Assembly: GCA_963748825.1 (NCBI GenBank)
Contig: CAVVKN010000005.1
Coordinates: 1-64,000 of the forward strand
DNA: 64,000 bases
Reading direction: 5' to 3'
Origin: Methanotrichaceae archaeon
Lineage (GTDB): Archaea > Halobacteriota > Methanosarcinia > Methanotrichales > Methanotrichaceae
Every line of letters starts with the position of its first letter. Position 1 is the first letter of the stretch. Below are positions 590 through 53,133 of this stretch, piece after piece. A program made the translations under genes and the position numbers. Below the pieces are notes generated by a model that was given only the letters and a program-made list of their open reading frames with translations, searched no databases and was not told the DNA's origin.

Positions 590-910
590 TATCTTTAAAT
601 ACCCATCATCCCTTAAGGGGGAAGGCCGATGTGATGGGTTCGAGGGCTTTGCTTCCGCCTCCTGATCAAAACCGGGGAGGCATGATGGGGCGAAATCTTT
701 AAATACGAACTTCGATCACAATGGCTGCCGAAAAGGGTTCAAGTTTTCTGGTCCATTTCGCGATTTCCCTTCCTGGGTAAGTCCGGATGAGCCAAAAGAT
801 ATAAATATCACGAACACCTTTCGAATTAGGCCAATAATGGATGCAATAGAAGTTTGCTGAAAGGCAACCTTTAAATAGTAGTATTGCGTACAGAATTGGG
901 CCGATGAGGC
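590..910 (+). promoter_or_regulatory. tandem archaeal promoters of the rRNA operon
   Basis: TATA boxes TTTAAATA at 594, 698 and 870 and TATAAATA at 800, each followed ~28-30 nt later by a GCCGA/GGCCAA-like motif. Confidence 0.6.
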
Positions 911-1077
911 GTCGTAACCCAAAAGCAAGGCTCCGATATCATTGAAGGGTCGAGCTATAAAGTTGCGATATAACAAAGATGGAGACGCGAGTTTTTTCGT
1001 GTCTGACATTGGTCTTGGCGACTCAGCCAATTCCGACTGGTTCGGAATAACATATTAAGTGAAATACTTCCTAGTGA

Positions 1078-2548
<1,471 letters not shown>

Positions 2549-2669
2549 AACGTTATGGGTATGCACAAGCATACCCACCCGTAACCAGTTGGAAGCTGAA
2601 AATGTCGACCGAGACCAAAAAGAGAACCAATTAGCCAGCTATTCTGATTATTAGCTGGGGCTAGTACCC

Positions 2670-2742
2670 GGGCTTGTAGCTCAGCTGGTAGAGCGCCGCC
2701 TTTGCAAGGCGGAGGCCCTGGGTCCGAATCCCAGCAAGTCCA
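2670..2742 (+). tRNA. tRNA-Ala(TGC) in the ITS
   Basis: GGGCTTG/CAAGTCC acceptor stem, anticodon loop TTTGCAA, T-arm GGTCCGAATCC. Confidence 0.97.
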
Positions 2743-2865
2743 ATTACAATGCACACATTGAGGCAGACTCGATGTGGAAGGGCGAAGGTCCGTTCTTGAC
2801 GGAGCGGTCCGATGATGCCGTGCACAAGCTTTGCGACCAGACGCTCACTGAGTTTAGTGGGGCAT

Positions 2866-5760
<2,895 letters not shown>

Positions 5761-5810
5761 GCTCCACTAAACTCGGGCGAAATCTGGTCGCAAAGCTTAA
5801 GGCACTTAAC

Positions 5811-5869
5811 CCAAGACCCCGGGTTACGGCCCGGGGAGGCACTAAACCGGTTCGATTCCGGTACTTGGA
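5811..5869 (+). ncRNA. tRNA-like (mini-tRNA) structure in the 23S-5S spacer
   Basis: CCAAG/CTTGG closing stem, CCCCGGG/CCCGGGG hairpin and T-arm ACCGG-TTCGATT-CCGGT immediately 5' of the 5S. Confidence 0.6.
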
Positions 5870-5872
5870 ATC

Positions 5873-5999
5873 GAGCATGGCGGCCAGAGCGACAGGGAAA
5901 CTCCTGAACCCATTCCGAACTCAGAAGATAAGCCTGTCCACGTTCTGCACTGTACTCAGATGCGCGAGCTCTCGGGAACTGTAGATCGCTGCCGTGCTC
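5873..5999 (+). rRNA. rrf: 5S rRNA
   Basis: GAGCATGGCGGCC...CCCATTCCGAAC...GCTGCCGTGCTC; the termini pair. Confidence 0.95.
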
Positions 6000-6180
6000 A
6001 CCTGATTTAATCTATTTTCGCAAAGCTTGAAATTATTGGATTGCTATTACCACTTAGCTATGCTGCACGGTCGATGGGGCTGCTATGTGCCCTAAAAGGC
6101 CAAGCTGCAGAGAGCTGCCGTGCTCATTCCTAATCATATGGCCGTTTGCCCAGGTGATGCCGGGATGGGGGCCCTTGTTA

Positions 6181-6400
6181 TCAACTGTTTTTGGGTTCGT
6201 CCTTGCATATAACAGAATAACGCGGATCAAACGCATACCTGTAAACATCCAGCACCAAGTTGAGCTCGACAACCTTGTTGACTAATAACCTCAAAGACCA
6301 ACGTGCGAAACCCTCTGGTGGATCACTGCAGCTTAATGCAATCAAGTGGGCTTCGAAATCCCCCCGTTTTTTTTGGCATGAGCGCGAGATCTCAAGAGGG
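6181..6400 (-). pseudogene. IS630-family transposase relic with internal deletion
   Basis: Minus frame reads DFEAHLIALSCSDPPEGFARWSLRLLVNKVVELNLVLDVYRYAFDPRYSVICKDE*. This joins the IS630 HTH motif (CS-PPEG-ARW-LRLL) directly to the VLDVY...DE catalytic region. Confidence 0.75.
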
Positions 6401-6553
6401 CTTATTGGGCTTTCTTCGCAGGCGCCGTCAAAATATGTAGATTTAGAGCCTGAAATCTATAATTGATCCCTTTTTCAGTCCAGCTCCTTCCCGCCCCGCT
6501 CACTGGGCGTAACCTTAAACCCTTTTAATGAGCACAGCCTTCCAAGGATTATC

Positions 6554-7582
6554 TTGACCGCAGATTCCTATGCCAAAGCCGTCATCGAAGCCGCCCTCTT
6601 CGCATCGGGCAGAACCCTCACTCCGCGGGAGCTGGCAGATCTTTCCACTCTCTCCGAAGAGCGGGCGCGGGCCCTGGCGGACGACCTGGCAGCGGAGTAC
6701 GCCACCCGCGACTCGGGCATCGAGATCAAGAGCATTGGTGAGGGCTATTCCATGCAGGTCCGCTTCGGCCTGGCCGGTCGGGTCCTCTCCTTCGCTCCAA
6801 AGGAAATCGAGGCTCCACTCATCAGAACCTTGGCCATCATCGCTTACAAGCAGCCCATCAAGCAGAGCGTTCTGGTGGAAATCCGGGGCAACAAGAGCTA
6901 CGATCACGTGAAAGAGCTGGAGGAAAGGGGCCTCATCAACGCGGAAAAGTTCAGCCGCACCAAGCTGCTCACCACCACGCGTGGCTTTGCCGATTACTTT
7001 GGCATCAGTTCCTGCAATCCCCAAGCCATCAGAAGAGCCCTTCTCAAAGATAAGAGGCTGGTGGGCGTCTCGCCCATGTACGAAAGCCTGGCCTTGCGTC
7101 TTGCCCTGGACTACATAGTAGTAAATCCCTACAAGCCGGAGGCGGAGGACCTGGAACGCCTGAAAGAGATTGAGCTTCTCGTGCTCGCCCCCGGCTACGC
7201 AGAAAGGGTCAAGCAGCACTACTCTGGCCAGATGCTGGAGGCGAGTGTTCGCACCCTTTCCCAGCTCAAGGAGAGCGCGGAGAGAATCTGCCAGGAGTCA
7301 GGCTGCGGGGATGTCGAGCCGCTAGCTGCCGAGGTGGACTCGCTGCTCAAGAGATTCCGGCAGAGGGCTAAAACCGCCCGGCCGGTTCGGCCGCTCACGT
7401 CCATGATCGAGGAGATCGCCCGCGACCTGCGCCTGCCTGTACAGGAGGGGGGACTGTCGGTCGCACCCGACTCTGCCGGATTGGAGGCCGATATCCTGGT
7501 GCCCGCTCACCAACCCTACGACATGGACATTCTGGAGAGAATTGTGCAGCGCTACGAAAAAATCCTGGGCGGGAAAAGTTAG
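6554..7582 (+). CDS. scpB: SMC-Scp complex subunit ScpB with long C-terminal extension
   Basis: IEAALFASG, TLAIIAYKQPI, EIRG and TTRGFADYFG motifs in the first ~160 aa, followed by ~180 extra residues. Confidence 0.9.
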   Translation: MTADSYAKAVIEAALFASGRTLTPRELADLSTLSEERARALADDLAAEYATRDSGIEIKSIGEGYSMQVRFGLAGRVLSFAPKEIEAPLIRTLAIIAYKQPIKQSVLVEIRGNKSYDHVKELEERGLINAEKFSRTKLLTTTRGFADYFGISSCNPQAIRRALLKDKRLVGVSPMYESLALRLALDYIVVNPYKPEAEDLERLKEIELLVLAPGYAERVKQHYSGQMLEASVRTLSQLKESAERICQESGCGDVEPLAAEVDSLLKRFRQRAKTARPVRPLTSMIEEIARDLRLPVQEGGLSVAPDSAGLEADILVPAHQPYDMDILERIVQRYEKILGGKS

Positions 7583-7656
7583 TGAAACCCACATGAGCAC
7601 ATTGCTCATGCAAGAAAGATGAAAAATGGATATATTCGCTAAGCCATTTAATTGCT

Positions 7657-7801
7657 TGATATGGGCGGTGAAGGCAGTCCGCCGTTTAGGGGCGTAGACC
7701 TCGTTAGTGAAACTAGCCAAATCCTGCGGATGCAAGAATGCGTCTGTTGAACGCGAATGCGAATGAGCACCCTTTGAGGATTAAGTTATCCGCCCATATC
7801 A
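7657..7801 (+). ncRNA. putative bridge RNA of IS110 #1
   Basis: Closed by TGATATGGGCGG/CCGCCCATATCA. Loop segments CCGCCGTTT (7679-7687) and GTTAGTGAAAC (7703-7713) match the element's own right and left flanks; ATGCGAA (7757-7763) matches its right end. Confidence 0.82.
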
Positions 7802-7815
7802 GGACGGGAATAATC

Positions 7816-9066
7816 ATGGAACTGCAGAGGAATAAAGTTTGTGGCATTGACGTGCACAAACGATTTCTGATAGCAACAATCCTTTCCCGAGACGGGAAGA
7901 AGGATACTCAACGTTTTAGCGTTACCCTGGAAGATCTCTTAAAATTTAGAGATTGGGTTATCGAAAATGGATGTGAACAGGTAGCTATAGAATCAACTGG
8001 AATCTATTGGCATCCTGTACACTCTGTTCTAGAGGGAAAGATCGATTTAATTGTGGCGAATTCCTACAAGATTAAGCATACTCCAGGAAGAAAGACCGAT
8101 GTCAACGATTCCGAATGGATTGCTGAACTTTGTCTCAATGGAATGATTGAGCCTTCCAGGATCTTTCCTAAAGATGATCGAGAGCTGAGAAGGTTGACCA
8201 GAGCGAGAGAAGGCTATGTTAAGCAGATGACTCAGGAAAAGAACAAGATCCACCAATCTCTCGATTCTGCTTGCATCAAATTGGCTTCAGTTATCTCTGA
8301 TATATTTGGCAAGTCCGGTATGTATCTCTTGAATTGCGTTCTAGAAGGAAGAGATATTGATGAGATAATTGAAGGCATTCCATCTGGACGACTCAAGAAA
8401 AAGGCGGATCAAATTAAAGAGTCTATCAAAAGTCGTCTAGAAATCTCCCAGGTCATTTTGATTAGGGGTTCTCTGAGCTTGATGAGATCCATCCAGGAGA
8501 GGATAGATGAGCTGGATGGAGAGATTAGTGCCAGAATTCAGTATCGCAAGAACGATTTAGCCATTGCTATGTCCATTCCTGGGACAGGGTTCGTCTCTGC
8601 TACTGCCATTCTGGCGGAAATTGGCAACTACATTGATTTCAAAAAGCCAGAGCAGCTTGCCGCATGGTGTGGCCTTGTTCCTTCTTTATATCAGTCTGCA
8701 GAAAAGACTATCCTCGGAGGAATAACCAAACAAGGCTCCAAGCATATTCGAAGAATGTTGATTCAAGTCGCCTATGCCATATCGCGAACCAAAGATTCGA
8801 AACTAAAGAAATTCTTCTTGAGGATTCAGGCCAAGAAGGGATCTAAAGTAGCAGCGGTTGCTCTGGCAAGAAAGGTTCTTTGCATTCTTCACCATCTTCT
8901 CATAAATCAAGAAATGTATCTTGAAGACAGAAATAAGAAAAATATGCGTCAGAAGCCCTTAACGCCGCCGTCTCCCATTGAGATGTCGATCCAAGAGATG
9001 ATTGACTGCATCGTCCGGGCAGGTTATGTTGTTACGAAGAGCGAGAGCAGAGGAGGATTCGGTTAA
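7816..9066 (+). CDS. IS110-family DEDD recombinase/transposase
   Basis: GIDVHK, IESTG and KTDVND (DEDD) plus the C-terminal AAWCGLVP..QS..GGITKQG motif. The likely start is MELQRNK; the ORF-track extension runs through the ncRNA. Confidence 0.95.
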   Translation: MELQRNKVCGIDVHKRFLIATILSRDGKKDTQRFSVTLEDLLKFRDWVIENGCEQVAIESTGIYWHPVHSVLEGKIDLIVANSYKIKHTPGRKTDVNDSEWIAELCLNGMIEPSRIFPKDDRELRRLTRAREGYVKQMTQEKNKIHQSLDSACIKLASVISDIFGKSGMYLLNCVLEGRDIDEIIEGIPSGRLKKKADQIKESIKSRLEISQVILIRGSLSLMRSIQERIDELDGEISARIQYRKNDLAIAMSIPGTGFVSATAILAEIGNYIDFKKPEQLAAWCGLVPSLYQSAEKTILGGITKQGSKHIRRMLIQVAYAISRTKDSKLKKFFLRIQAKKGSKVAAVALARKVLCILHHLLINQEMYLEDRNKKNMRQKPLTPPSPIEMSIQEMIDCIVRAGYVVTKSESRGGFG

Positions 9067-9090
9067 ATCAATTTTTCGGGTTTTTCATGC

Positions 9091-9235
9091 GAAACGGCGG
9101 CGGCTCACCCGCGCAGCAAGCTGCGGGGCATCCAAGGCGCCGCCGCATGAAGGTGGAACCAGGTTAAGCTGATCCCAACCTAAGCTGAATACGCATGCCC
9201 GTTATCCCCGATGCAAGCATCGGGGTATTACGATA
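9091..9235. repeat. palindromic MITE-like element (IS200/IS605-end-like hairpins)
   Basis: GGCGGCG...CGCCGCC encloses CCCGCGCAGCAAGCTGCGGGG; second hairpin CCCCGATGCAAGCATCGGGGTATT; related copies at 45978 and 53075. Confidence 0.65.
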
Positions 9236-9324
9236 AAAATAAAATATAACTAATAATATAATAATGAGAACAACTTGTATGACCAACATTATTATTTAAT
9301 CTCTTAAGGAAAATTCAGTGCAAT

Positions 9325-9610
9325 TTATTCTTTTCTGGCAGACTCGTGCTGGATTGCCAACTCTTTCTTCCAGTAAACATTGTACCAGAATCGATGACCA
9401 TTATCGCTTTGCCTACGGTCACGAGATACCCAACCCCATTTGATCAGAATCCTGAGAACTCTGGCGATACGGCGTTCTGCTCGAATTCAATCCGTGTATG
9501 AGGATATCTCCAAGCCAATTACCTCTGCGATATCTTTCAGAGATTTGGCATCGGCTTTGCTATTAGGAAGGGCCACAAGAATAGTCTATGGGTCATTATG
9601 CCGACCAGAT
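9325..9610 (-). pseudogene. degraded small winged-helix-like DNA-binding protein
   Basis: RHNDP*TILVALPNSKADAKSLKDIAEVIGLEISSYTD*IRAERRIARVLRILIKWGWV...NVYWKK; two in-frame stops. Confidence 0.5.
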
Positions 9611-9751
9611 CTTCACCCTCCTATCCGAAGGATAAACAATGCTCATTGGATAAAAACATGCACTATAAGCAAAGGAATTTGGACGGCTGAAGTCGCCAAA
9701 GATTCCCCTTTAATACCATATTATTTGACCTAATTATATAACATATTTGAT

Positions 9752-10222
9752 TTATATATAGCTTCGCCACAATCGTTGCAGAGAGCTTTTCTTTTTGTCA
9801 ATCCACAGATCTGCCGCAGAATGTTGAGTTATTGGACTAGGTCTATTCGTGATCATTTTGGCGGTCTGTGTGTCTTTTTTTCTTTGCATAAATTGGTAAG
9901 CAATCTCTGGGTCCAACTTGTATCTTTCCAGATAGACTTTTCGAGAGAGCTGTTCTCCTAACGAGGAAATGTATATTGGATCGCCTACAATTGGTGTGAC
10001 CTTTCCGCTAGGTAGTATCCACTCAAAACCTTTAGGAGATTCGCATAGCCAGTCTTGCTCAGTATCACTAAGGTTCTGAGGATCGATATCTAATTCGTTC
10101 ATTGCACCGCAATTTTGACAGACAAAGAGATTTTTAATTTTTCCACTCGTCATTGCGGGTTCTATATCCAACACGTTTCTTATGCCACATTGGTGGCATT
10201 TAGCTTTGATTTTTATCCCCAT
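9752..10222 (-). CDS. hypothetical zinc-ribbon protein
   Basis: N-terminal CHQC...CQNC; RBS-like GAGGGGG upstream. Confidence 0.75.
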   Translation of the reverse strand: MGIKIKAKCHQCGIRNVLDIEPAMTSGKIKNLFVCQNCGAMNELDIDPQNLSDTEQDWLCESPKGFEWILPSGKVTPIVGDPIYISSLGEQLSRKVYLERYKLDPEIAYQFMQRKKDTQTAKMITNRPSPITQHSAADLWIDKKKSSLQRLWRSYI

Positions 10223-26966: not shown

Positions 26967-28236
26967 TTTTTTTTCTAATCTACAGAAGGTTCCTCGCTAT
27001 TTCAAGTGGGTAGATTGAACTGCAATTTTCCAAGTCTAAGATATATAATTAGTATGAGATTCTTCGTTGTTCTGAACCCTCTTGCACTGCTCTTTGCAGA
27101 TTGAACCATGCTGTTTATTCCTTCAAGCACGCCGTTGGATATTTTGGTTTCAGCATAATTTATTATTTCGCTCCAATGTGACTTTATTGTTTTGGCAGCA
27201 TCAATAATAGGTTCTATTTGGCTGTGTGTTGCCCAATAATACCATTTTTTGAGGAAATCCTCCGCAAGGAGCTTATCATTAAATGTCCAAAAGTCTTTCA
27301 GACTAAGCTTGAAATTGTATGCTTTGGATGTCATCAAATTCATATCTTTGAGAGAGCCCAGCTTCTCTTTTTCAGCCAATGAAAGATCATTTGGATTCTT
27401 AAGCCACATATATCGAGTATTTTTTAATTCTGCATTGTGGTGCTGCTCCTCGCGACGTACTTTATCCACTGCCTCATTTACCATCTTCATAACGTGGAAT
27501 TTATCAAAAGTAAGAGACGATCCAGGAAACTGTTCCGCTATTCCTGATATGAATGCAGGAGAAATATCCGAACAGAACATCTCAATATTTTCCGATGCTC
27601 CATTATGATCCTCAAGGTCTTTTTTAAATGAGCTGATAACACTCGCATCTTTGCCCTCGCATACGTATAGAACTTTATTATTGTCGAAATCAACGAATAG
27701 CGACACATATTTATGAAATTATGCACATGAGGTTTCATCTACGCCTACTATTTTTACTTGAGAATGATCTTCTTTAGATCTAGATTCAGGAATATAATAC
27801 GACAATACCCTCCAGATCCTTGTATCATGCTCACCGATAATCTCAGCTACGGCACTAATTGACATATTCTGGGCAAAAAGAAGTATCAGTGCATCCATTA
27901 GCAATGTGAAACCTGTGCTCTTCCTAGCCCATGGAACATCAATCAATCTGATTGAACCACATTTCTCGCAAATTGTGCGTGGCACTCTGGCATGAATATA
28001 TGCCTTAAATTGGAAAAAATTAAGGTGCCGCCATACTTTTTCCTTTGTATCATGAATGCAGTTGTTTGGATTTTTGCAATTTAAACATTCAAATCTACTT
28101 CCTGGGATAAAATCGATATGAATATCCAGTTGCTTTTTAGCACTGCTGAATTCTATCGACTTGATATACCAAGGATCTTGAAGATTCAATGCAAGTTTCC
28201 CATGGAAAACCACATAAATCAAAAACAGGAGGCGAT

Positions 28237-29556
28237 CTATTCACCACCCCCGGATGGCCTATTATTGCCGGCTTTTGCCATAGAAATGGCTCCAAGCTCA
28301 CGCATAAGTGCATTCTTCCTACTGCCCTCCTTCAGATGATAAAAGGCATCCACAATTGCAGCGACCCTATCCGTTAAATGCTCTTCCTTAAATGAAGGTG
28401 CCTGGCAGGACTTATCCTGGCTCGATCTACTCTTCCTGCATTCATCTTCTTGATACAACTCCTGGTTTATAAGAAGATGATAAATGAGACAGATGAGTTT
28501 CCTAGCAACGGCGATGATCGCTACGTTACGCTCCTTCTTTTTAATCAATCTCTTGAAGAATCTGGACAGCGCCGTCTTATTCATATTTGATATGGTCTGG
28601 GCTGCTTGGACAAGTATAACTCTGATATGCTTGGAACCCTTCTTTGTAATTCCACATTTTTTCTTCTTGCCTGCAGATTCGTTTTCTCCAGGATTGAGGC
28701 CACACCATTTTGCGATCTGGTTCGGAGTCTTAAAATCTCGGTAGTTTCCAATCTCCGACAGTATGACCGATGCAGATGTGAATCCAATTCCTGGGATCGA
28801 CATGACTATGGCCAGATCTTTGCTCTTTTGCTGAACCTTTTTCAGGACCTCAAGGCTTAGCTTCTCCATTTTGGATTCGAGATTGTCAAGGATTTCCAGA
28901 GCATCTTTTAAGAGCATTCTGTTTGTATCATTCAGACCATTTTCGAGTGCTGATCTAATCAGGTCTTGCTTCTTCCTTATCTTTCCGGAGGGTATGCCTT
29001 TCAAGATCTCTTCGATGGGCTTCTCTTCAGCCAGACAGTCCAGGATGTATCTGCCGGACTTGCAGAAAATATCGTCCATGGTAGAACTGAGCTTAACGCC
29101 ACTTGATGATAGATATTTATGAATCCGATTCCGGAACTGAGTTCGTGTCTTGACATATCCGGACCTGGCTCGCGTCATCATCCTAAGGTCTCGGTCATCA
29201 TCGGTAAATACGCGATACCTTTTGATTTGACCGTTCAAGCAAAGGGTTGCGATTCGGTTTGAGTCTTTAGAGTCGGATTTGTCATTTGGAATGGTTTTTA
29301 TCTGCAACGGATTGGCTACAATTGTATCTATGGTTTTGCTCAGGGCATCATAAATCGGCATCCAATAGACGCCAGTAGCTTCAAATGCCACTTGTTCGCA
29401 TTTGTTGGCAACCAGCCAGTTTCGGAATCTCTTAAGCTCGGCTTTTGTTGTACCAAAATTCTCTCGAATTGGCAGCACATCATCGCCAGTTACTGTGGCA
29501 ACGATCAAATCTTTATGGACATCTGCTCCGCAAACTCTATCTCTTCGTCTTTTCAT
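28237..29556 (-). CDS. IS110-family DEDD recombinase/transposase
   Basis: GADVHK, FEATG, KSDSKD and KWCGLNPGENESAG motifs. Confidence 0.95.
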   Translation of the reverse strand: MKRRRDRVCGADVHKDLIVATVTGDDVLPIRENFGTTKAELKRFRNWLVANKCEQVAFEATGVYWMPIYDALSKTIDTIVANPLQIKTIPNDKSDSKDSNRIATLCLNGQIKRYRVFTDDDRDLRMMTRARSGYVKTRTQFRNRIHKYLSSSGVKLSSTMDDIFCKSGRYILDCLAEEKPIEEILKGIPSGKIRKKQDLIRSALENGLNDTNRMLLKDALEILDNLESKMEKLSLEVLKKVQQKSKDLAIVMSIPGIGFTSASVILSEIGNYRDFKTPNQIAKWCGLNPGENESAGKKKKCGITKKGSKHIRVILVQAAQTISNMNKTALSRFFKRLIKKKERNVAIIAVARKLICLIYHLLINQELYQEDECRKSRSSQDKSCQAPSFKEEHLTDRVAAIVDAFYHLKEGSRKNALMRELGAISMAKAGNNRPSGGGE

Positions 29557-29567
29557 ATGCGTTTCTG

Positions 29568-29716
29568 CCTGGTATGGGCAGATGATCTTTCCCTGATGTG
29601 GGATAATTTCCCATGCGCGTTCTAAGACGCAGTCCCGTATTCGGGGGGATCTTGGCCTGTTTCAATCACGGGATCAAGCGTCCCATAAACTTGCCGGCCT
29701 TCACTGCCCATATCCG
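29568..29716 (-). ncRNA. putative bridge RNA of IS110 #2
   Basis: Same scaffold as 7657-7801. Loop segments GCAAGTTT, GTGATTGAAAC and CATGGGAAA match its own flanks and right end. Confidence 0.82.
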
Positions 29717-30061
29717 GCTTAACGTGAACGGATAACAATATGTGGTTTTCCATCCGTCACGTGTGAGCCTCTGCCTGGGGCGCATGGTCGTTTGAATAGG
29801 TCTTCCTGCGAGAGAGTCACGGATAATAATTCAAGAAATGACATTATTAAACCTTACCCCAGGAAGTAAAAATCCTCCCGGATGCCAAACCAGCCTATCC
29901 GGGCTGGATGCCATCCTGCTTGCTGATTTCTTGATTCCTGTCCTCGGATTTCATTTAATAGTAACTTGAGGTTAGCCACCTGAAACAGCGAAGAGCCATA
30001 TCAATTTTGTAACGGCGAACATGGCAATAGCTCAAAATCGTTATCAGCAAAAATAAATTTA

Positions 30062-53041: not shown

Positions 53042-53133
53042 GTGATGTCCTCATGATCTTCGAGAAATATGGATTGAAACGGCGGCGCGCACCCACGCAG
53101 CCTGCAACTTGGAAGTTATTACCGGTAATCAAC

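Follow-up and report, generated by a model that had tools for sequence, protein, structure and literature searches.

How does an insertion sequence (IS) of a methanogenic archaeon choose the place where it inserts? The question is raised by a 64,000-nt stretch of DNA from a Methanotrichaceae archaeon (assembly GCA_963748825.1, contig CAVVKN010000005.1, positions 1 to 64,000), referred to below as the window, in which positions 7587–9093 are an intact element of the IS110 family. An original prediction, made from the letters of this DNA, held that the element encodes an intact IS110 recombinase together with an upstream RNA of the bridge type that spells out its own insertion site. The Pfam domains of the protein, its IS621 catalytic residues and the co-variation of RNA loops with insertion sites all bear this out. 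The locus is very probably a real bridge/seek-RNA element, an archaeal version of a known mechanism, its function being read from comparison with relatives. On this reading it is a recently active insertion sequence of a Methanothrix genome.

The features on which the argument turns are as follows; LTG and RTG stand for left and right target guides, R1 for a covariance model and A1 for an alignment.

7578–7584, + strand: left target half (LT), GTTAGTG; AGTG (7581–84) is common to most insertions, and the half overlaps the ScpB stop codon TAG (7580–82)
7585–7586, + strand: core AA, left copy; the left and right junctions of sub-families E, C and L015 share AA(A) only
7658–7803, + strand: predicted bridge/seek-type non-coding RNA gene, 146 nt (R1 142.6 bits; A1 with its consensus structure; fold)
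7679–7687, + strand: 5′ side of the target loop, CCGCCGT-TT (CCGCCGTTT), which complements the top strand of core plus right flank (RTG role)
7689–7702, + strand: inner hairpin of the target loop; A1 pairs 32–34/44–46, with a compensatory change between AU and GC in 4 sequences
7703–7713, + strand: 3′ side of the target loop, (GTT)AGTG-AA + AC (GTTAGTGAAAC), in the same sense as left flank plus core (LTG role)
7740–7754, + strand: invariant hairpin GCGU..ACGC before the donor guide; helix 4, 98% of cells paired
7757–7763, + strand: left-donor guide ATGCG-AA, in the same sense as right end plus core
7816–9066, + strand: IS110-family DEDD/Ser recombinase, 416 aa, intact (Pfam domains, IS621 alignment)
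9092–9093, + strand: core AA, right copy; 9093 is the last position shared with an RNA-library contig that has a different flank
9094–9100, + strand: right target half (RT), ACGGCGG, the start of a repeat, resembling repetitive extragenic palindromes (REP-like), that runs to about 9250

Target matches at the window element

All of the strings cited in the original prediction were found where it had placed them (direct reading of the window). The 11-mer GTTAGTGAAAC occurs in the 64-kb window only at 7578–7588 and 7703–7713, with 0.00 occurrences expected from 100 shuffles, and three times in the 2.88-Mb genome, the third being a copy of the same left flank on contig C18. The segment CCGCCGTTT at 7679–7687 is the reverse complement of AAACGGCGG at 9092–9100. 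This 9-mer is found three times in the window (9092–9100, the reverse complement at 7679–7687, and 53077) versus 0.26 expected, the occurrence at 53077 being part of a further copy of the target repeat. The outermost three bases of the 11-nt match, GTT, are unmatched in most other insertions of the same IS. These guide/flank matches are real and far beyond chance.

Guides and insertion sites in relatives

The idea was tested on relatives in Methanothrix and other Halobacteriota. Fifty-three sense copies of the RNA gene were gathered with their flanks. They form sub-families with different loops, and in each of these the left flank recurs on the 3′ loop side, while the 5′ loop side is complementary to the right flank. 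Guides and sites were compared through the longest contiguous match containing the core, after removal of rows with identical flanks and guides. On the left, a match of at least 6 nt was seen in 25 of 38 cognate pairs versus 1 of 508 pairs with guides of other classes, and on the right in 14 of 35 versus 2 of 546. The mean match for cognate versus non-cognate pairs was 5.5 versus 2.5 on the left and 5.3 versus 2.8 on the right. L025 and L051 came without a left flank, and that of L046, chosen by an automatic procedure, may be incorrect. Since copies of a sub-family share their guide by descent, the events count as independent insertions but not as independent guides. Members found with R1 outside this sample, in other families of the phylum (L069, L070 and L071), show the same matches.

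Family A, to which the window element belongs, has 13 distinct left junctions. Nine of these match the 3′ loop side over at least 6 contiguous nt, counting the core, and the left flanks of independent insertions read ..AGTG directly before AAAC. Right flanks in this family are AAACGGCGG (window, C18 and L057), AAACGGCAG (L011) and AAACGGGGG (L032). Wherever further copies of this IS were seen, whether in other genomes or in contigs of RNA libraries, they lie at sites related to AGTG-AA-ACGGCGG, as the original prediction implies.

In the wider set, the 5′ loop side covaries with the right flanks (AAACGGCGG, AAGCAACGG, AATGTGGGA, AAAATATCA, AAAGGATG and others). For instance, the loop segment CCGTTGCTT of L015 and L062 agrees with the right flank AAGCAACGG at 9 of 9 positions, as does UGAUAUUUU of L017 with AAAATATCA, while the 3′ side of the latter, TTTATAAAAC, fits its left flank at 10 of 10. 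In family E, TTCCCACATT agrees with the right flank AATGTGGGA (9/9 in both L022 and L054), and the 3′ side CTGCGGAAAC matches the left flank CCTGCGGAAAC. Guide and flank also have in common AGTCAAAC in L058, ATTGAAAC in family B and CCCTAAAC in family C, where TCATCCTTT additionally pairs with the right flank AAAGGATG. The sub-family targets themselves are unrelated: ATTGAAAC, CTGCGG-AA-TGTGGGA, TTTATA-AA-AATATCA and CCCT-AA-AGGATG. The RNA carries both a bottom-strand and a top-strand target match, each including the core and each covarying with the sites. To judge from this natural co-variation, the recombinase may well be programmable.

Two sites in genome G021 (L033/L048 and L049) hold copies that share a 6-nt deletion of one GCGAAT unit in the donor-guide region and have CCGCAGTTT in the 5′ loop side. 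As these elements are interrupted, no right flanks were recovered for them.

Structure and spread of the RNA gene

Alignment A1, of 28 sequences, gives four helices: an outer 13-bp stem (7658–7670 with 7790–7803), a GGC/GCC stem closing the target loop, the inner hairpin, and the invariant GCGU/ACGC hairpin. When two further closing pairs are included, 95.4% of cells are paired versus 27–42% after the partners are slid. Four pairs show changes on both sides, and the covariation score was reached by 0 of 500 shuffles, a result to be read with caution since the sequences are related. In distant members the outer stems are wholly different yet complementary, and fully compensated. The fold of the RNA gene has a minimum free energy of −55.3 kcal/mol (z −3.72), and 0 of 200 shuffles fold as well.

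This comparative structure makes the two target-matching segments the two sides of one internal loop, facing each other across a short hairpin, in agreement with the original prediction. The stem-closed segment that it placed upstream of the recombinase is likewise real, its extent being 7658–7803 (146 nt) instead of 7657–7801 (145 nt). The gene starts 70 nt inside the element and ends 12 nt before the recombinase start codon. The final AC of the 3′ loop side equals the first two bases of the element’s left end, reminiscent of a handshake guide, and the guide of family E retains this AC though its right flank starts with TG.

Covariance model R1 was built from this RNA family and used for genome searches. 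It matched 49 of 151 genomes sampled from the class (39/74 in family f1, 7/67 in f3, 2/4 in f4, 0/3 in f2 and 0/2 in f5) and 11 of 151 in an even draw from the phylum, both counts including the genome of the window, which has nine matches. The closed genome G005 has about 20. Among the other genomes of the genus, 22 of 36 contain DNA related to the left end; two other families of the class gave 0 of 24 genomes. The closest bacterial protein relatives, a Bacillus thuringiensis plasmid locus (L067, 37% identity) and a Paenibacillus locus (L065, 40%), gave no R1 match at E up to 1 with default filters. The RNAs of these loci, if any, differ from the R1 family. A 2081-nt contig (L059) labelled as a Rikenellaceae metagenome-assembled genome carries the archaeal IS (88% protein identity) and two copies of the RNA gene, one whole and one cut. 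Mis-binning of a Methanothrix contig is a likelier explanation for it than transfer to a bacterium.

Donor guide, core and possible circle junction

The original prediction had also matched ATGCGAA (7757–7763) to the right end of the element. Right ends in relatives were located with a generic motif (T-run+CAT+NNN+AA at the expected distance), without use of the guide, which yielded a candidate for 25 of 33 distinct elements and none for 8. In 23 of the 25, the 5 nt before the core are identical to 5 nt of the RNA, in the segment just past the invariant GCGU hairpin; the remaining two differ by 1 nt. The donor-guide variants among the 25 are ATGCG, ATGGG, ATAGG, ATGTG and ATAGC, and a sixth, ATACA, occurs in L071.

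The sequence GAAAC is present at both boundaries (7584–7588 and 9091–9095; the right end reads CATGCGAAAC at 9086–9095), as first reported, but GAAAC or AAAC is too long for a core. Target and donor happen to have AAAC in common in the window element, whereas sub-families whose right flank does not start with AC (family E, family C and L015) have only AA in common. In family E, for example, the left junction is TGCGG-AA-ACCCTCATG and the right junction CATAGG-AA-TGTGGGA. The obligatory shared core is, by these junctions, AA only (7585–86 and 9092–93).

A circular form of the element would have the junction ..CATGCG-AA-ACCCACATG... The string CATGCG-AAAC-CCACATG, foreseen in the original prediction, is present in one contig of RNA run X16, which reads ..TTTTTTCATGCG-AAAC-CCACATG.. 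(a step back of 1502 along the window, at depth 11.3, the shorter side having 35 nt). This contig is a circle or head-to-tail tandem junction, the two being indistinguishable, and it comes from a relative, because it has one more T than the window.

A model of site selection

We infer from these observations that the element selects its insertion site through an RNA encoded in its own left end. Positions 7658–7803 would encode an RNA of about 125–146 nt, stem-closed and multi-branched, with one branch bearing the internal target loop. Bound to this RNA, the recombinase would join the circular form (..CATGCG-AA-ACCCACATG..) to the target AGTG-AA-ACGGCGG, with strands exchanged at the AA core. 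The AC that follows the 3′ loop side may act like a handshake guide, matching the first bases of the left end. RNA–protein binding, the strand chemistry, the RNA ends and the promoter are all predicted parts of this scheme.

The recombinase and its element

The protein matches PF01548 at 4.2e-24 (residues 9–153) and PF02371 at 5.7e-23 (residues 250–333), and phmmer aligns it to the IS621 transposase (PDB 8wt6_A) at E 1.4e-12. Catalytic positions are kept relative to 8wt6_A: D (GIDVHK), E (AIESTG), D..D (KTDVNDS) and Ser (LYQSA), with the numbering offset to IS621 worked out by hand. As to the IS110 versus IS1111 clade, plasmid annotations of relatives give ‘IS110 family’ only, and the PDB matches include no structure of IS1111 type.

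The remaining features of the element are these:

7587–7657, + strand: left end before the RNA gene; AC plus C, then CACATGAG, a hairpin, ATGAAAAA and the TATA-like ATATATT
7590–97, + strand: terminal inverted repeat CACATGAG, left end
7592–7610, + strand: left-end hairpin
7619–26, + strand: ATGAAAAA, inverted copy of the right-end TTTTTCAT
7630–36, + strand: TATA-like ATATATT, about 25 nt before 7658; putative promoter
9067–9091, + strand: right end, ending ..GGGTTTTTCATGCG (from sequence and relatives’ right ends)

Conservation of the putative promoter ATATATT across sub-families is incomplete. Non-coding DNA amounts to 229 nt upstream of the recombinase gene versus 25 nt downstream. The terminal repeat is an imperfect 8-bp repeat (7/8), CACATGAG/CGCATGAA, with extensions of 3 nt on the left and 0 nt on the right (read by eye). 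Insertion is site-specific for each sub-family, with a shared core of 2 nt and neither long terminal inverted repeats nor a real target duplication.

A further inverted repeat, ATGAAAAA (7619–7626)/TTTTTCAT (9081–9088), links an internal left-end site to the right end and changes in concert across sub-families (ATGGAAAACC, CATGAGAAACC, ATGTAAAA; read by eye). A protein site and a promoter element are both possibilities for it.

The element starts 4 nt past the stop codon of ScpB, at the 5′ edge of a REP-like genomic repeat. Its left neighbour, scpB (PF04079), is uninterrupted because its stop codon falls within the left target half. An rRNA operon lies further upstream (window 494/897–6139), with 16S at 1078–2548, a tRNA at 2670–2742, 23S at 2863–5765 and 5S at 5876–5997. 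At >99% identity this operon is found on four contigs of the assembly (C5, C7, C10 and C18).

The REP-like target repeat

The repeat that opens at the right flank recurs at scattered places in the genome. For the reconstructed site AGTGAA+ACGGCGG there are 0 exact genome copies (0.09 expected from composition) and 15 with one mismatch. By our own reading, the same GC-rich hairpin motif follows 14 of these 15, which puts the element at the 5′ edge of a REP-like repeat. Many bacterial IS110 elements are likewise placed at REP-like repeats. Copies in the window lie at 9092 to about 9250 and at 53073–53130; they begin AGTGAAACGGCGGCG and continue CACCCGCGCAGCAAGCUGCGGGG..UAUUGCGUUUAAAAA, and the repeat matches nothing in Rfam. 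Its 5′ edge is where family A inserts; family D (L056) sits at its 3′ end (..CGTTTAAAAC).

Second copy, family B and a CRISPR-like array

The assembly holds only two copies of the element. The second, on contig C18, differs by 1 mismatch in 1342 nt and lies in a region (C18:141606–149645) that is 99.4% identical to window 897–9131, including the rRNA operon, scpB and the IS. It lacks 7589–7752, that is, its first 164 nt with the whole target loop, and its right flank differs but again begins AAACGGCGG. The copy could be a second locus or a strain variant in a mixed assembly.

A second IS110 element in the window (28197–29791, − strand) belongs to family B; its left end is about 72% identical and it has the same RNA family. 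Its RNA gene, 29568–29714, scores 143.2 bits with R1 and has ATTGAAAC as 3′ and GGCAAGTTT as 5′ loop side. The right flank AAACTTGCA matches over 8 nt and the left flank ATTCAAAC with one mismatch. On contig C12 of the same genome (about 108.1–118.9 kb; L003–L006 and L068) lies a CRISPR-like array, with a 37-nt repeat ending ATTGAAAC and 56 matches at about 73-nt spacing. Several family-B elements are inserted exactly after ATTGAAAC in this array, and others in G005 (L041 and L042) and at L038. One copy is inserted after the ATTGAAAC of another copy’s guide DNA, which yields tandem, 5′-truncated neighbours. This suggests that family B is an RNA-guided IS aimed at CRISPR repeat ends. The matches listed from the literature on IS110 and CRISPR repeats contain no description of an IS110 element so aimed.

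RNA-library contigs

Parts of the stretch were found in six RNA runs, of which four, from four studies, were aligned to it as contigs. The region for which a transcript had been proposed is thus present in contigs of four RNA libraries. These cover 7581–9097 and show other flanks of the same IS; they give no cover at 7400–7527 and 9256–9300, which proves nothing. In X16 the summed contig depth is 293–430 over 7656–7783 versus 16–80 over the open reading frame (ORF), and, as contig depth cannot rank parts of a gene, this contrast is a weak hint of an abundant short RNA. Contigs ending in Illumina adapter stop at 7778, 7785 and 7789.

Points against an RNA-guided element and alternative explanations

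Several observations weigh against an RNA-guided element. Guide matches are poor at a number of loci: 2 nt on the left at L013 and L008, 3 on the left at L063, 2 on the right at L019, 2 and 3 (left and right) at L024, and 4 and 2 at L035. Most right flanks of family B match over 4–5 nt only (AAAC plus 0–1 nt). Flank similarity within family A could partly reflect conservation of the REP-like target, and because that similarity alone may be of this kind, the argument rests on the sub-families. A search of 7000–9800 against Rfam at E up to 1 gave 0 matches, and the single-sequence minimum-free-energy fold pairs part of the 3′ target guide with a strand of the closing stem instead of leaving it open. 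The RNA evidence consists of Logan contigs, in which strand, ends and level are unreadable and DNA may be present.

The right donor half is the start of the left end, and no guide for it was found by inspection of both sides of the GCGU hairpin and the 3′ single strand, where the reverse complement of AA-ACCCACATG and its sub-family equivalents were sought. The candidates TCAT and ATCAT (families B and C) gave short, inconsistent matches, so none was assigned.

The C18 deletion of 7589–7752 likewise has no explanation that we found, its junction, ScpB-GTTAGTGAAAC|GCGAATGCG.., sharing AAC only. Recombination between two GTTAGTGAAAC copies, of the left junction with donor-guide DNA, or at TTG-AA-CGCG does not give the observed junction. 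An assembly chimera was ruled out because the two sides share just 3 nt (AAC microhomology).

Of the other readings, the one that survives best, though improbable, takes the locus for a bridge-RNA IS by descent that is no longer mobile in this genome, with the matches as fossils of past insertion. The two copies in the assembly, one 5′-truncated, would fit, and so would a junction contig whose extra T assigns it to a relative. On the other side, the intact ORF retains its catalytic residues, the fit of the guides to both flanks is perfect, and the C18 copy differs by only 1/1342 nt; junction and flank variants occur in RNA-library contigs, and closely related genomes carry copies at different sites.

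It is far less probable that the protein alone chooses the site by way of the REP-like repeat, and that the upstream segment is an mRNA leader or attenuator with captured pieces of target. The family-A target is indeed a conserved repeat, whose own consensus begins AGTGAAACGGCGG, the segment does end 12 nt before the start codon, and IS110-family elements in REP sequences were described long before the RNAs (as cited in the bridge-RNA literature). Yet the sub-families have unrelated targets, and each shows its own at the same two positions of the loop, once in sense and once in antisense. Flank capture would give neither this split nor the right-end match, and the indels of 1, 2 and 4 nt in A1, together with the conserved helices, fit an RNA.

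Scarcely credible is a segment acting in cis as DNA, a binding platform or cruciform at the left end: the nearly palindromic closing stem, both of whose strands matched the anchor search, and contigs that give no strand would allow it, but R1 scores 142.6 bits on the + strand with no minus-strand match listed over 7658–7803 at E up to 1, and the opposite strand reaches 14–19 bits where scored (window 29571–29717 and L059) versus 143 and 105 bits. The helices also contain G-U pairs (pair 13/140 in 7 sequences, pair 12/141 in 4), which on the other strand would read A-C, and the segment is set 70 nt in from the tip of the element.

Significance

The RNA-guided element favored here is of a known kind and not a new principle, because archaeal IS110 recombinases and broad mining of bridge RNAs have already been reported. 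It was from bacterial elements that bridge and seek RNAs became known in 2024, and the same logic would operate here in methanogenic archaea, with natural reprogramming. Compact recombinase/RNA pairs already working with archaeal transcription could serve methanogen genetics. Published large-scale bridge-RNA mining sets may contain the family, which as an RNA family is not in Rfam.

Comparison with known systems

Archaeal IS110 proteins are known from a set of 662 recombinases (Vaysset et al., 10.1101/2024.06.21.599552) and from ISC1229 of Sulfolobus (PMC10883916), with which the window element shares an archaeal host and the protein family. In the portions of those two sources drawn on here, the RNA, target and guide are not described, though supplementary tables may list them. 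Non-canonical bridge RNAs have also been mined broadly (10.64898/2026.10.21.760802). Among the matches listed from the literature on archaeal bridge RNA and IS110 and on Methanothrix IS110 there is no description of the window element, and the supplements of Durrant et al. and Siddiquee et al. may contain the family.

The bridge-RNA systems of IS621 and the IS110 group, as outlined in the relevant parts of Durrant et al. (2024, PMC11208160) and Hiraizumi et al. (2024, PMC11208158), have a target loop that holds two guides, one for the top and one for the bottom strand, and both take in the core. In IS621 the LTG occupies RNA positions 50–58, the RTG 77–80 and the handshake bases 81–82 (PMC11208158). 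On that description, the likeness to the window element extends to a DEDD plus Ser recombinase, an RNA in the left end upstream of the gene, a candidate circular junction of right and left ends, a bottom-strand and a top-strand guide in the target loop, both over a 2-nt core, a donor guide made of right end plus core, a REP-like natural target and a 2-nt handshake-like extension.

The differences from IS621 concern mainly the order and shape of the RNA. In this loop the 5′ side binds the top strand and the 3′ side the bottom strand, whereas in IS621 the LTG is 5′ and the RTG 3′, and the handshake-like AC follows the bottom-strand guide. One stem-closed multi-branch fold takes the place of the two successive stem-loops of IS621, the target- and donor-binding loops (TBL and DBL), and the donor guide lies in a multiloop. 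The core is AA in place of CT, and the protein has 416 aa versus 326–328 aa. No sigma-70 junction promoter is expected, because the host is archaeal.

In contrast, the order of the guides, a point absent from the original prediction, is that of IS1111 seekRNAs, which begin with the complement of the top strand (Siddiquee et al. 2024, PMC11187229). Further points of likeness are inverted repeats close to the ends and donor-binding bases in a multiloop, the latter reported for many IS1111 (Durrant et al., PMC11208160). The long non-coding region of IS1111 elements is downstream of the recombinase gene with few exceptions, one with an upstream region being ISMtsp17 (PMC11187229), whereas that of the window element is upstream. 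Its terminal repeat is about 8 bp with extensions of 3/0 nt, versus 11–13 bp and 7/3 in IS1111.

A bolder reading, possible but on balance doubtful, would make the family a distinct, phylum-wide archaeal lineage of guide RNAs that unites an upstream RNA, IS1111 polarity and a multiloop donor site. Its RNA–recombinase cassette would, in comparison with IS621, be inverted relative to the recombination sites, and it would be a living intermediate between IS110 and IS1111 with an archaeal promoter in place of a sigma-70 junction promoter and at least six natural targets in one genus, including both edges of one REP-like repeat and the ATTGAAAC ends of CRISPR repeats. If that were true, a sister family would erode CRISPR arrays by RNA guidance. 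What the comparison itself indicates is a family that combines IS1111-like RNA polarity with an IS110-like gene position, and this mixed architecture bears on the relationship of the two groups and on which features of the RNA are truly required.

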